From contig OX597818.1 of assembly GCA_951406725.2 (NCBI GenBank), positions 117,738,001 to 117,802,000 on the forward strand: a stretch of 64,000 bases of DNA. Direction: 5' to 3'. This document shows, one piece after another, positions 1 to 40,334 of this stretch. The notes below the pieces were generated by a model. The model had not been told where the DNA came from. It did not search any database and saw only the letters and a program-made list of their open reading frames with translations. Position 1 is the stretch's first letter; every line of letters starts with the position of its first letter. The position numbers were made by a program, and so were the translations under genes. The DNA is from Octopus vulgaris (lineage: Eukaryota).

Positions 1-140
1 TTTGTGCTTTCTTATTTGGATTAATAATATATATATATATATATATATATATATATATATATATATATATATATATATATATATATATATATTTATATGA
101 CTAGCTCACATGTATTATAACCCATGCTACTAAACGTTTG

Positions 141-349
141 ACGCATATGGAATCCATGTACGTTCTTCAGGCGGCAGCAACACCATCAGACTTAAGCAGT
201 TTAAATACTGGACAAAATTTAAAAACAAGGCGAAAGAAACCCAGTATCAGTTTTTTTCGCCCTGTTTTTAAATTCGGTCCAGTATTTAAACTGCTTAAGT
301 CCGATGGTATGGCTGCCGGCCGAAGAACACACATGGGTTCCATATACGT
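141..349. repeat. Long imperfect palindrome (100-bp arms, 9-nt loop) between (TA)n tracts; MITE-like or hairpin element
   Basis: 141-240 is the ungapped reverse complement of 250-349, with 13 mismatches counted by eye. Confidence 0.9.
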
Positions 350-631
350 GAGGTGGTCATAAAAAATAACATTTACTCTCGTTAGATGGAGTACTATTTT
401 TGGTGAACCTGTGCGTACGGACCTATTCATTATATATATATATATATATATATATAGGCACACACACATACATACACACGCACACACGCACAAATATATA
501 TATATATATATATATATGTATATATATACATATATATACATATATATATATATATATATATATATATATATGTGTGTGTGTGTGTGTGTGTGTGTGTGTG
601 TGTGTGTGTGTGTGTATGTGTGTGTATGTAT

Positions 632-908
632 AAGGATGAAAAGGAACACACGAGTTGATATATATGAAACAACAAGTCAGGATAGAAAATGCTAAAATAA
701 TTTTATAAAGAACATTTCAGTACCGGTTTCAGCCATTGAGACTTTTTCAACTGTAACAATTAAATAATTAAATTTAGAAAAATTAAAATGAAAGTTTTTT
801 TTTTAAAGAATATTTGTATAGTGTTCAAATATAAGTGGCGTTTTCCTTGTTTCTGCCTGTCTCGAAAGACAGAGACAGTATTTTCTATCCTGACTTGTAT
901 TTTCATAT
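632..908 (-). mobile_element. Short non-autonomous element with a minimal hammerhead-like motif and a ~32-bp inverted end duplication
   Basis: 662-693 is inverted relative to 877-908. The HHR-like motif lies at 718-753. A second family member is at 18688-18880. Microsatellites flank it. Confidence 0.65.
718..753 (-). ncRNA. Minimal type I hammerhead ribozyme-like motif, U3/A8 variant core
   Basis: Minus strand reads cag-UUGAAAA-aguc(ucaau)ggcu-GAAA-ccgg-UA-cug: stem I, stem II, palindromic stem III, GUA triplet. Confidence 0.6.
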
Positions 909-1039
909 ATATATATATATATATATATATATATATATATATATATATATATATATATATATATATATATATATATATATATATACATACATATGTATAA
1001 CTTTGGCATATATATATATATATATATATATATATATAT

Positions 1040-1830
1040 ATAATATAAGGCGATTGAGTTCATGAAAACATATGTTAATATGCACCACATAAACCTGAAC
1101 TTTATGATACATACGAGAAAAACATTTATATTCAGTAAGGTCTCCGAATATTTCGATGCATGGATAAGATCGTATAACAGGGCGGACATCTGCGATCTTG
1201 CAGGTCTCTATATATTAAATGCGCTACGATCCAAGTTCCTATCTATATTGGCCGATGTCGAGACAATGGGTTGGGAATATCTCAATTCTCTGATGGTCAC
1301 ACTCATGATAAATTTTTGAAAAAACTCATTGATATCTTTTGTCAATTAGGCCTCACAGTCAATGTCACTTCTAATATGTCAGAAATCGATTTTTTAACGT
1401 TTCCCTAGATATATAACCCCGTTCGTATAATCCGAACCACAAACCAAACGAAAATCTCACGCATATATACAAACAGTTTTGTCAGTCCCCTATAGTGTTT
1501 AAACACCTGATATCTAATCGCTACTGTTCTAAAGAAATATTTGATAAAGCAACGCTCTGGTATAACAATGTTCTAGTTAGCAGTGGCTTCAAAGTTAAGA
1601 TACATAGTACCATTCCAAGTAAAAATATGAATAATGAAAATAGAGGCAAAAACAGACCTAGGCAAATACATGGTTCGGTCCCAGCACTTTGCCCTTAAAC
1701 ATTAAAGCTAACGTATCTAAGAAACCTCTGACTCTTTCAGATAAGCATTTCCCAGGATACCATATATACAGAAAGAATTTTAATAGATGCTCGATTGAAA
1801 TATCATAGAGCTACAGTGCCAGTGTGAAGA
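1040..1830 (+). mobile_element. Degenerate Penelope-like retroelement RT/thumb fragment (Naiad-like motifs)
   Basis: Frameshifted translation [79 protein letters not shown] resembles PLE motifs FDVTMGSYDGAE.CELVGLYIL / YRDDGL / DKHFP...KIFNR.T.K.SYS. It ends in (CA)n. Confidence 0.8.
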
Positions 1831-2283
1831 ACACACACACACACACACACACACACACACACACACACACACACACACACACACAAACACACACACATGA
1901 TTATTTGTCATATAAACTACGACGTTAGTGGCAGGATGCAGTATATGTGCTTCAGCCTATCGGAATTTTTTTTGCAGCGAGAACGATTTCATTCGTTGAA
2001 AATATAAGTAATAATCCTGTTACACTGAGAATCCTATTTCTGCTAATCAATTTCTGTTTCCTTTCCTATTTACTACGAACACATACATACATGCATACAT
2101 ACATACATACATACATACATACATACATACATACATACATAAACACATACACACACACACACATATATATATACTTACATACATACATACATACATACAC
2201 TCATACTTAAGACATATACACACATATATATATATACATATGTTATATGTACTTGCGCATAAACATACACACACACATATATA

Positions 2284-2787
2284 TCTATATATATAAAACT
2301 GTAGTTGTGTGAGTGTCTGTCCCCTTCGATTTAGATTCCTAACTCCTCCCACATTTTGCGGTGCAGTTTAACCAAATTCGGGTATCTCATAGTCGTGATT
2401 CATATCGAGCCCGTCTGACTATTAGCGCGCGTCAGCGATGAGTCTACGATTTAAAAATAATTTAACATCATTTTTTATTCCATTTTAATGCATAAAATGC
2501 ATCGTATGTCGATGGCGGCGGAGTTGGCGTCCACGCTCACAGCTCCACCTGTTTGCTTCTCCCCTTCCCTCCCTCGTGAAGCTGTGGGGAAGGGAGTGTA
2601 AAGAAATCAACGTCGTAATGCGTTGTGAAGGAAACCAGCGTTCTTTTAGAACAACGACTTCATGGCTTGAAGACACCAAAACAAAAATGGCTAAGAAAGC
2701 CCGAATTTATAAGGGAAGTAACTCTCTAAAAATGCTTATATAGTTATTTCCCTTACAAACCCGAGCAACGCCGGGCGATACTGCTAG
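2284..2787 (+). mobile_element. Non-autonomous Helitron, copy 1 of a tandem pair
   Basis: 5' TCTATATATATAAAA after an A; 3' hairpin cccgagcaacgccggg then CTAG (2784-2787). Confidence 0.85.
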
Positions 2788-37665: not shown

Positions 37666-39270
37666 ATATTTGAGAAACCATTCCTGTAGTCTCTGCTCAT
37701 ATATGGAGTCATGCGAAAATTTGTATATGAACATAAACGTGTCATAACATAAATTCACATTGTCTAGGACATGTATTAGTTATATAATATTTCGCAAAAA
37801 TACATACGTACCCTGAGACAGTGGAACGGTCACTCCATCATTTACGACGGAGATATATATTTGAGAAACCATTCCTATAGTCGGTGCTCATATATGGAGA
37901 GATACGTAAAGTTGTATATGAACATAAACGTGTCATAACATAAATTCACATTGTCTAGGACATGTATTAGTTATATAATATTTCGCAAAAATACATACGT
38001 ACCCTGAGACAGTGGAACGGTCACTCCATCATTTACGACGGAGATATATATTTGAGAAACCATTCCTATAGTCGGTGCTCATATATGGAGAGATACGTAA
38101 AGTTGTATATGAACATAAACGTGTCATAACATAAATTCACATTGTCTAGGACATGTATTAGTTATATAATATTTCGCAAAAATACATACGTACCCTGAGA
38201 CAGTGGAACGGTCACTCCATCATTTACGACGGAGATATATATTTGAGAAACCATTCCTATAGTCGGTGCTCATATATGGAGAGATACGTAAAGTTGTATA
38301 TGAACATAAACGTGTCATAACATAAATTCACATTGTCTAGGACATGTATTAGTTATATAATATTTCGCAAAAATACATACGTACCCTGAGACAGTGGAAC
38401 GGTCACTCCATCATTTACGACGGAGATATATATTTGAGAAACCATTCCTATAGTCGGTGCTCATATATGGAGAGATACGTAAAGTTGTATATGAACATAA
38501 ACGTGTCATAACATAAATTCACATTGTCTAGGACATGTATTAGTTATATAATATTTCGCAAAAATACATACGTACCCTGAGACAGTGGAACGGTCACTCC
38601 ATCATTTACGACGGAGGTATATATTTGAGAAACCATTCCTATAGTCGGTGCTCATATATGGAGAGATACGTAAAGTTGTATATGAACATAAACGTGTCAT
38701 AACATAAATTCACATTGTCTAGGACATGTATTAGTTATATAATATTTCGCAAAAATACATACGTACCCTGAGACAGTGGAACGGTCACTCCATCATTTAC
38801 GACGGAGGTATATATTTGAGAAACCATTCCTATAGTCGGTGCTCATATATGGAGAGATACGTAAAGTTGTATATGAACATAAACGTGTCATAACATAAAT
38901 TCACATTGTCTAGGACATGTATTAGTTATATAATTCTTCGCAAAAATACATACGTACCCTGAGACAGTGGAACGGTCACTCCATCATTTACGACGGAGAT
39001 ATATATTTGAGAAACCATTCCTGTAGTCGGTGCTCATATATGGAGAGATACGTAAAGTTGTATATGAACATAAACGTGTCATAACATAAATTCACATTGT
39101 CTAGGACATGTATTAGTTATATAATCCTTCGTAAAGATACACACGTATCCTGAGACAGTGGAAGAGTCACTCCATCATTTACGACGGAGGTCTATATTTG
39201 AGAAACCATTCCAATAGTCCCTGCTCCTGTATGGAGACCTACGAACTATCACTCCACCCATTACGATGGA
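37666..39270. repeat. Tandem array of a 191-bp unit (8 full copies plus a partial one)
   Basis: gagaaaccattcc starts at 37672, 37863, 38054, 38245, 38436, 38627, 38818, 39009 and 39200; inner copies nearly identical, outer copies diverged. Confidence 0.97.
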
Positions 39271-39289
39271 AACTGTTCTCGTTGATTTG

Positions 39290-39497
39290 ATGAGCTGGAC
39301 AGCCTGCTCGTTAAATTAACATGCAAGTGGCTGAGCACTCCACAGGCACGCGTAACCTTAAAATTGTTCTCAGGGAGAATTAGCGTGACACAGAATGTGA
39401 CAAAGCTGGACATTACCATCGTGAACCGAATGCTCTAACCTATTTCTTTATTTCGTGAACCGAATGCTCTAACCATTTAGCCACGCGCCTTCCACGT
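39290..39497 (-). mobile_element. SINE family C fragments (tail and deleted head)
   Basis: Reverse complement of parts of 50452-50780; 22-bp duplication tcgtgaaccgaatgctctaacc. Confidence 0.7.
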
Positions 39498-39899
39498 GTG
39501 AGCATATAAAACTTACATTCGCGCATTCATAAACTCACACACACATACACAAACACACACTAATATATACTGTTTACTTTTTACACGTTTCAGTCATTTG
39601 ACAGCGGCCATGCCGGAGCACCCGCTTTAGTCGAACAACATATGAAATATTAGGAAAGGAAAAAATTGTAGGTGTAGTCGATCTATAATTCATAATCCAG
39701 GTTGGTACAGATCCAATATGAATTATACAAATTGCTTCGGTCCTCACCTCATATATATATATATATATATATATATATATATATATATATATATATATTT
39801 ATATGGTGTGTAAGTGTGTGTGTGTATAACCTATAAATTACCTGTATAAAAAAAGGTGATTTTAGCTGCTTCATCCTACATTGGAAAGCCTGTTGAATA

Positions 39900-39942
39900 A
39901 CCGTAATCGATTTTCGATTCTTCTTGAATTCTCATCAGAGGC
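39900..39942 (-). ncRNA. Minimal hammerhead-like motif with canonical CUGAUGA core
   Basis: gccu-CUGAUGA-gaauuc(aagaa)gaauc-GAAA-aucgau-UA-cggu; palindromic stem III; stem I weak. Confidence 0.5.
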
Positions 39943-40067
39943 ATCTTCATCAGTTTCAGCATTTACAGAGAAGTAAGTAGCCAATCTCTCTCTCTCCCCC
40001 TCTCTCTCTCTCTCTCTCGCTATATATATATATATATATATATATATATATATATATCTTTTTTTCA

Positions 40068-40280
40068 AAATGTGACCTCGTGTGTACCGTTGGCGATTTT
40101 TTTCCTCTGTCTTCCCTTCTCTGGATCTTTCCTTCTCCTATGTTTCCGACGAAGAGCTCCGCCCGAAACGTTAAACCCCCCTTCTTTCCTTCTTTCCTGA
40201 GCGTCCAATAATACTATATTTGTTCCACGTCCTCGCGTTGTTGTGTTTTTCTTTTGTGCTTTCTTGTTTGGATTAACTTT
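40068..40280 (+). mobile_element. Short HHR-motif element (CCGACGA core) between (TA)n tracts
   Basis: 40142-40176 reads guuu-CCGACGA-a-gagc(ucc)gccc-GAAA-cg-UU-aaac; its 3' end matches window positions 1-24. Confidence 0.65.
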
Positions 40281-40334
40281 ATAAATATATATATATATAT
40301 ATATATATATATATATATATATATATATAAATAT

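Follow-up and report, generated by a model that had tools for sequence, protein, structure and literature searches.

Hammerhead ribozyme islands in TA microsatellites of Octopus vulgaris as probable 3' ends of Penelope-like elements

A stretch of 64,000 nucleotides from the Octopus vulgaris genome (assembly GCA_951406725.2, contig OX597818.1, positions 117,738,001 to 117,802,000; in the following, the window) contains numerous TA microsatellites, copies of a short interspersed nuclear element (SINE), three relics of Penelope-like elements (PLEs) and six short islands with hammerhead ribozyme motifs. An original prediction from the sequence had interpreted these islands as a community of non-autonomous, ribozyme-carrying mini-elements that targets and perhaps expands the TA tracts. 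The analysis presented here confirms the underlying observation and supports this interpretation in part. In our view, the islands are for the most part probably the 3' ends, in the form of solo pseudo-long terminal repeats (pseudo-LTRs), of several autonomous, endonuclease-coding PLE families with a preference for (TA)n.

The islands were searched with a structural descriptor for type I hammerheads with a palindromic stem III. A first version recovered only one of the six islands (721-750); after inspection of the islands the descriptor was widened by an optional nucleotide after A9 and by a longer stem II, and in this form it recovers all six, each with at least one motif of the PLE kind carrying zero to two defects. 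Both the additional nucleotide behind A9 and the U3-A8 core belong to the published PLE consensus (Cervera and de la Pena 2014, PMC4209133). The long stem II was added by us and is absent from the published PLE consensus. With zero, up to one and up to two defects, the descriptor gives 4, 9 and 16 matches in the whole window as compared to means of 0.007, 0.55 and 2.8 in block-wise dinucleotide shuffles, and the observed counts were reached in none of 150 shuffles. The reversed window, used as a control, yielded 0, 0 and 1 matches at 0, 1 and 2 defects. Seven of the 16 matches are the island ribozymes, two others lie within the island at 13 kb, and the seven located elsewhere, one of them without defects at 10298 in PLE coding sequence, are probably due to chance.

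The strict CUGANGA core is present in two of the six islands only, and three islands carry core changes. The motif architecture matches the metazoan PLE consensus with respect to the extra nucleotide after A9, the palindromic helix III and U3-A8. The motif of the 13-kb island folds as a clean three-way junction (z-score -5.0). For four short motifs the folds do not surpass those of shuffled sequences (z 0.06-0.30), which is expected of dimer-type motifs, yet provides no evidence for them; when two short hammerheads were cofolded, the hammerhead fold of a dimer was not obtained, and this result is uninformative. Changes at core positions 6 and 4 reduce the activity of other hammerheads (Perreault 2011), and the single weak motifs at 39904 and 5200 could be inactive. 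No hammerhead family appeared among the 150 Rfam matches listed of the 404 for the window, nor in two sub-regions. The Rfam matches to MIR8562 and other microRNAs reflect palindromes and TA and were discarded, and ARAGORN found no tRNAs in the window.

By pairwise similarity the six islands represent five families, as many as the prediction had required at least. Islands 5105 and 16885 belong to one family (B; 82% identity), and the island at 40068 (family E) is a distant sister of family B, with scores of 50-54 as compared to null maxima of 34-36; the similarity between the remaining pairs is at background level. Each family has one to three copies in the window (Table 1). One further island (93-430), absent from the list of the original prediction, is a head-to-head palindrome (141-349, 84% arm identity) with a decayed hammerhead-like motif in its minus arm (about 124-170), where a strict core match at 170 fails the descriptor. 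U is found at core position 6 in all three copies of family B (5200-5227, 16982-17009 and 9000-9030) and is a family trait, not decay.

The distance from the cleavage site to the 3' end amounts to 89-124 nt in six of the eight measured arms and to 31 and 234 nt in the other two, 41-225 nt are retained upstream of the hammerhead core, and the 3' ends are shared among the copies in families B and E. Inverted copies or palindromic 5' junctions are present in both copies of family A, in family C and in island 93-430; there are none in families B, D and E. The main copy of family A carries a 36-nt tail (632-667). It is followed by a small hairpin formed by fold-back at about 850-876, and its 3' end recurs as a short inverted, tailless copy (877-904) that adjoins the TA tract at 905-985. 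In family C the tail measures 110 nt and thus exceeds the 30-40 nt described for PLEs. The minus arm of family C consists of a 492-nt unit preceded by an exact 61-nt copy of its own end, and the plus arm is an inverted partial copy of 400 nt that is identical in 398 of 400 aligned columns; the two hammerheads are intact and identical, with a stem I of 8 bp and a rod-like stem II of about 30 bp. Several of these pieces are packed closely together: four PLE-related insertions (the family E tail, island 93-430, family A and a Hydra-like relic) occupy a single microsatellite block of 1.8 kb at 1-1830, and a similar paired packing is seen at 39751-40329.

Table 1. Coordinates of hammerhead islands, PLE relics and the host SINE in the window
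Feature	Position	Strand	Remarks
Family E, second copy, 3' tail cut by the window edge	1-26	+	87% identity over 31 nt to 40253-40283; followed by TA 27-92
Additional island	93-430	.	TA on both sides
Family A, main copy	632-904	-	Hammerhead 721-750, U3-A8 core
Family A, second copy	18689-18885	-	5' palindrome; ends within the hammerhead core, next to a short TA run
Family B, copy 1	5107-5290	-	Hammerhead 5200-5227, weak stem I; 3' end at TA 5064-5106
Family B, copy 2	16884-17050	-	Hammerhead 16982-17009; TA of 57 nt on 3' side, 12 nt on 5' side
Family B, partial copy 3	8950-9060	+	77-81% identity to the other two copies; about the last 70 nt gone, GAAA damaged
Family C	13396-14345	.	Head-to-head arms; TA 13348-13395 and 14347-14424
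Family D	39810-39985	-	Hammerhead 39904-39938, strict core, defects in stems I and II; TA 39751-39798 on 3' side
Family E	40058-40279	+	Hammerhead 40146-40172, U4C, one stem II mismatch; TA 40021-40057 and 40285-40329
Hammerhead motifs, by descriptor	721-750(-), 5200-5227(-), 13630-13720(-), 14131-14221(+), 16982-17009(-), 39904-39938(-), 40146-40172(+)		
PLE relic, Hydra-clade-like	1043-1830	+	Decayed, frameshifted; reverse transcriptase (RT) to thumb region; 5' end at TA 1008-1042
PLE relic, Neptune/Nematis type	9060-10780	+	Decayed; RT, C-x4-C-x2-C linker, C-terminal GIY-YIG
PLE RT relic	62270-63856	-	RVT_1 E 1.1e-8; 5' end at TA 63857-63902; truncated ahead of the endonuclease, beside a SINE
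Host SINE copy	16806-17277	+	Head about 19 nt (by eye); internal TA tract split by island 16884-17050; body 17062-17277

Furthermore, the association of the islands with TA was assessed against the high background in the window, where 129 TA tracts of at least 10 nt cover 4.8% of the sequence. Of 13 3' ends, some of them placed according to the TA border, eight have a TA tract of at least 20 nt no more than 10 nt away (the misses are 349, 632, 18689, 9062 and, at 11 nt, 39810). Among the controls, such a tract adjoins none of 22 outer ends of SINEs (Fisher p 5e-5) and one of 42 other repeat ends within 30 nt, and the background is 0.009. The ends that are fixed by homology between copies (5107, 16884, 26, 40279, 904 and 14345) all adjoin TA. 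In a test independent of the assigned borders, seven of the 16 descriptor matches have a TA tract of at least 20 nt within 150 nt downstream (background 0.077, p 1e-4). Targeting of TA by the PLE-type islands, well above background and SINE controls, is supported by these data. The predicted TA borders on one or both sides were also found, except that 60 nt of TG/CA repeat intervene between 632 and the TA tract and that no TA tract of 10 nt is present on the 5' side at 5290. In line with the predicted lack of conventional target site duplications, no target duplication other than TA was seen (computed for three regions, the remaining ones inspected by eye). Three Octopus Naiads and Hydra-1_Obim are listed with a (TA)n preference, which hides target duplications (Craig et al. 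2021, PMC8557442). Both this preference of Octopus PLEs and the existence of solo hammerhead PLE ends are already published.

Copy 2 of family B does lie inside the internal TA tract of a SINE, as had been noticed before. This abundant SINE of about 420 nt, found at 14965-15408 and about eleven other sites, has an internal TA/TG linker of variable length. At the filled site the island is enclosed by a TA tract, which follows the short piece of SINE head, and by a SINE body of 89% identity; the remainder of the head is missing. All nine other SINE copies with head and body have an unbroken linker; the SINE TA tract therefore predates the island at 16884. The internal TA tracts of the SINE provide ready pairs of empty and filled target sites for studying TA targeting and tract growth. 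One SINE copy, at 26188-26271, shows an inverted internal rearrangement.

The three predicted PLE lineages correspond to three relics in the window, one of them Hydra-like and two with Neptune-type features, these clade labels being based on motifs and not on a tree. In the relic at 1043-1830, the motifs of RT and thumb correspond, as judged by eye, to those of Hydra-1_Obim and also of Hydra-1/2_Amil (Craig 2021 File S7), and after this comparison an assignment as Naiad was dropped in favour of Hydra. This relic has no Pfam match and resembles six PLE-RT-like proteins (P0123, P0125, P0126, P0128-P0130); the other four of the ten matches of this search (P0121, P0122, P0124 and P0127) were discarded as unrelated repeat proteins. 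It ends in a CA repeat before any endonuclease, linker and endonuclease not being contained in the relic. In the relic at 9060-10780, linker and GIY-YIG domain lie at about 10410-10610, with a GIY-YIG Pfam E value of 0.0017, below the cut-off. Nematis has the same CX2-5CxxC linker type as Neptune (Craig et al. 2021). A word-indexed protein search with the 10.3-kb endonuclease piece gave no match, which is weak evidence, and no hammerhead end follows the stop codon. A segment of 785 bp (9023-9807), part of it within this otherwise heavily decayed relic, has an inverted duplicate with 99.9% identity at 6690-7474, which is either a recent duplication or an assembly artefact. The relic at 62270-63856 shares 83% identity with a protein of Octopus bimaculoides, more than with any other of the 120 matches listed, and the C-x4-C-x2-C linker and GIY-YIG domain were found in its full-length homologues only. 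The relics beginning at 1043 and 63856 do contact TA as predicted, but with their 5'-truncated ends.

The motifs, their spacing to TA, the inverted and tailed anatomy and the filled SINE site are direct observations. They could be brought together as follows. The GIY-YIG endonuclease of a PLE would nick a TA tract, and its RT would begin copying the uncleaved RNA of the element at a point about 90-125 nt downstream of the hammerhead. It would break off early, 41-225 nt upstream of the hammerhead and short of the coding sequence. The inverted partial copy would then come from fold-back priming or from a further round of priming, and any target duplication would stay hidden in TA. The hammerhead would merely be carried along, its cleavage not being needed for insertion.

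Published data on PLEs are consistent with these steps. In a PLE from Anolis, reverse transcription starts on uncleaved RNA 111-118 nt into an open reading frame (ORF) that begins in the hammerhead, and cleavage is dispensable for insertion in vitro (Frangieh 2024, PMC11167929). By analogy, this would explain the downstream spacing and the tail of the islands. Inverted head-to-head copies, palindromic junctions and an optional tail of 30-40 nt are hallmarks of PLEs (Craig et al. 2021; Arkhipova 2013), and the layout of family A, with tailed main copy, fold-back hairpin and tailless inverted copy of the 3' end, is the one described for PLEs. Hammerhead motifs of this kind are reported to occur mostly singly, probably as remnants of truncated PLEs (Cervera and de la Pena 2014), and 30 recently active Penelope families have been reported for O. 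vulgaris (Bonar 2026).

The distances in coding PLEs point in the same direction. For comparison, 39 loci were fetched, which are PLEs in prokaryotic assemblies that we infer to be eukaryotic DNA, and in seven of them the match reaches the end of the endonuclease. In three of these seven, about 190-420 nt separate the end of the ORF from a hammerhead (L002 and L008 by descriptor, L001 by eye). In Hydra-1_Obim, where the motif is located at 2403 of 2507 (Craig et al. 2021), the distance is about 125 nt by eye. The upstream lengths of the islands do not exceed the 3' untranslated lengths of PLEs. A truncated copy of island size would hold little or no coding sequence, and the absence of ORFs therefore does not prove non-autonomy. 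No coding signal was found in the islands by tblastn with 120 homologues or with a profile from 12 aligned proteins; a word-indexed protein search with the translated 40068 island also gave no match, which again is weak evidence, and the family B pattern had no match in prokaryotic genome contigs. Overall, size and anatomy of the islands are those of 5'-truncated copies of autonomous PLEs and do not establish the predicted families of non-autonomous mini-elements. An origin of the islands as hammerhead cleavage products was rejected, since each of them retains the whole motif plus upstream sequence.

The comparison loci themselves show additional features. That 39 PLE-like loci occur in prokaryotic assemblies is an observation in its own right. 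Locus L021 of a bacterial assembly contains a microsatellite-rich, eukaryote-like stretch (4001-6065) with a PLE in which TA tracts break up both the end of the ORF and the untranslated region, parts of these being duplicated. In L008 (2768-2900), a start codon and an open frame follow about 35 nt after the hammerhead, which by eye is a direct tandem junction of pseudo-LTR and ORF.

The original prediction had named the lack of any sequence link to a PLE terminus as grounds for its refutation, and the data come close to this, since only the family of 5105 and 16885 touches a PLE relic, at a junction inside the RT. The third family B copy is joined in the same orientation to mid-RT sequence of the relic at about 9060, where an upstream pseudo-LTR would sit. 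No island matches the terminus of a coding PLE. Several observations speak against the islands being clipped PLE ends, and this lack of a parent element is the first of them: no match was obtained with the ends of the three relics or the 39 fetched loci (best E 0.17), nor for six exact island motifs in the supplement of Craig et al., where line wraps could conceal some. Local alignment of family B to the 3' end of the 9-10.8-kb relic scored at noise level (23). The family B piece at 9060 lacks its own 3' end and is not repeated after the stop codon of the relic, and none of the three coding relics has kept a hammerhead end. In four of the seven comparison loci a complete hammerhead is missing downstream: two of the contigs stop within 270 nt, one locus has none, and one has half a core before TA. 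All eight measured hammerhead arms are short upstream, and none enters coding sequence. In family B the 5' ends differ in position by about 20 nt at most, and both copies of family A fold back near one point, which would also suit defined mini-elements. Finally, the 492-nt unit of family C has, besides its terminal redundancy, a stable circular fold, with a z-score of -6.4 in sense as compared to -3.75 in antisense orientation (40 shuffles) and a hairpin that spans the unit junction.

It is possible, though less likely, that some islands, chiefly family C and perhaps families B and E, are true non-autonomous elements, namely derivatives of pseudo-LTRs or retrozyme-like circles that are copied in trans by a TA-targeting PLE protein. 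Besides the circular fold and the nearly common 5' ends in families A and B, the intact hammerhead of family C with its z-score of -5.0 and the exact terminal redundancy of 61 nt at a spacing of 492 nt favour this possibility. Precedents are the non-autonomous Chlamys elements (Craig et al. 2021), hammerhead tandem units of 450 bp in Drosophila willistoni (Cervera and de la Pena 2014) and Xenopus retrozymes related to pseudo-LTRs (Li 2026, 10.64898/2026.07.22.740005). A non-coding monomer of a few hundred nucleotides with a stable circular fold is found in family C alone. However, an equal redundancy would result if a truncated cDNA switched templates to the end of a second RNA, and a microhomology of 3 nt exists at the junction (13885-13890). 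The two arms of family C may stem from one fold-back event and hence cannot be counted as separate cases. The window contains no head-to-tail array with two hammerheads, family C comprising 1.12 units plus the inverted arm and not the at least two tandem hammerhead units expected of a retrozyme, and as a single locus it cannot decide the matter. Only tentatively, family C may be a young, non-coding circular or tandem RNA element of 492 nt that was copied by a PLE more than once around into (TA)n, while family B might spread with a U6 core that may not cleave. If so, the PLEs of a cephalopod would have a retrozyme-like parasite that is directed to microsatellites, does not form arrays and, by inserting, both divides and seeds TA tracts.

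With solo or 5'-truncated PLE pseudo-LTRs the islands share the core, the extra nucleotide after A9, the palindromic helix III, the short helix I and U3-A8, and they likewise occur as single dispersed copies and close inverted pairs of many families per genome (Cervera and de la Pena 2014). The alignment of 56 motifs in that study contains no cephalopod; stem II of family C is far longer than described there, and U6 in all three copies of family B is a further difference. With the Hydra, Naiad and Neptune PLEs (Craig et al. 2021), they have in common insertion into (TA)n in Octopus, hidden target duplications, inverted 5'-truncated copies, an optional tail and a hammerhead near the 3' end. Naiads, unlike the islands, lack canonical hammerheads, and Hydra-1_Obim, which the relic at 1043 resembles, has a hammerhead and 3' end that by eye match no island. 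The Poseidon element of Anolis (PAc; Frangieh 2024) has its hammerhead roughly 100 nt upstream of the 3' end and an AT-rich target, as the islands do; in PAc two start sites yield the tail, and uncleaved RNA serves as the template. In contrast, PAc prefers ATT and not (TA)n, and a full element was studied in vitro. Animal non-LTR retrozymes are non-coding units of a few hundred nucleotides with a type I hammerhead, a stable circular fold and a link to pseudo-LTRs (Cervera 2020, PMC7229834; Li 2026), and family C fits in size, the retrozyme monomer range being 51-972 nt (Li 2026). They are, however, defined by head-to-tail arrays with at least two hammerheads, whereas here at most 1.12 units are found, inverted and in TA. 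The system is of a known kind, and its particular families were not met in the literature searched. No description of these Octopus families or of a PLE-driven TA expansion was found there, most subscription papers, Repbase and Dfam lying outside this search.

We consider it unlikely that the elements actively lengthen TA tracts, e.g. by telomerase-like repeat addition by the PLE RT. The summed flanks of four islands (mean 92 nt) exceed those of length-weighted other tracts (47 nt, p 0.026), TA at the filled SINE site adds up to 57 + 12 = 69 nt and is above the longest run in all nine empty copies (10-51 nt), and tracts next to PLE pieces exceed the others in length (p 8e-5). The tracts adjacent to 3' ends (n=8, mean 49 nt) are longer than a random tract (24 nt, p 0.0005) but not above length-weighted draws (37 nt, p 0.075; 44 nt, p 0.26). 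Tract splitting together with ordinary slippage, or a hidden duplication, would raise the summed flanks equally well. PLE pieces border 622 of 3107 TA bases (20%) and 11 of the 43 tracts of at least 30 nt; most of the TA is therefore not accounted for by PLE pieces, and the two longest tracts (192 and 118 nt) have no identified PLE piece adjoining them. A preference for long tracts and an expansion of TA cannot be told apart here.

That the motifs or their TA association arose by chance in a microsatellite-rich genome is highly improbable and, for the set of motifs, refuted: about three chance matches are expected, seven matches fall outside the islands, Rfam lists no hammerhead among the matches considered, the four short motifs fold poorly and some island ends are defined by TA itself, but the shuffles never reached the observed counts and the homology-fixed ends adjoin TA without exception.

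If the islands are indeed clipped PLE ends, the window shows known biology, with PLE ends that occur at high density in Octopus, amounting to at least ten hammerhead-family pieces in 40 kb, lie nested in TA tracts and escape Rfam. Should family C turn out to be a true mini-element, it would be a single object in which retrozymes, pseudo-LTRs and microsatellite targeting meet, and it would provide a natural long-stem hammerhead.

Other repeats were noticed in the window. A tandem array with a unit of 191 bp and about eight copies of high identity is located at 37666-39243 and contains no hammerhead match. Mariner-like transposase relics at 36348-37185 and 4179-4510 were recognized by a weak HTH_48 match and by their mutual similarity, and the C-terminal relic of a long interspersed nuclear element lies at 49837-50300 (zf-RVT match, E 1.4e-5). 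Repeats at 2296-3183, 15927-16470 and 22914-23270 open with a short TA run and close with a GC hairpin and CTAG, with an internal tandem duplication in the copy at 2.3-3.2 kb; we take them to be Helitron-like.

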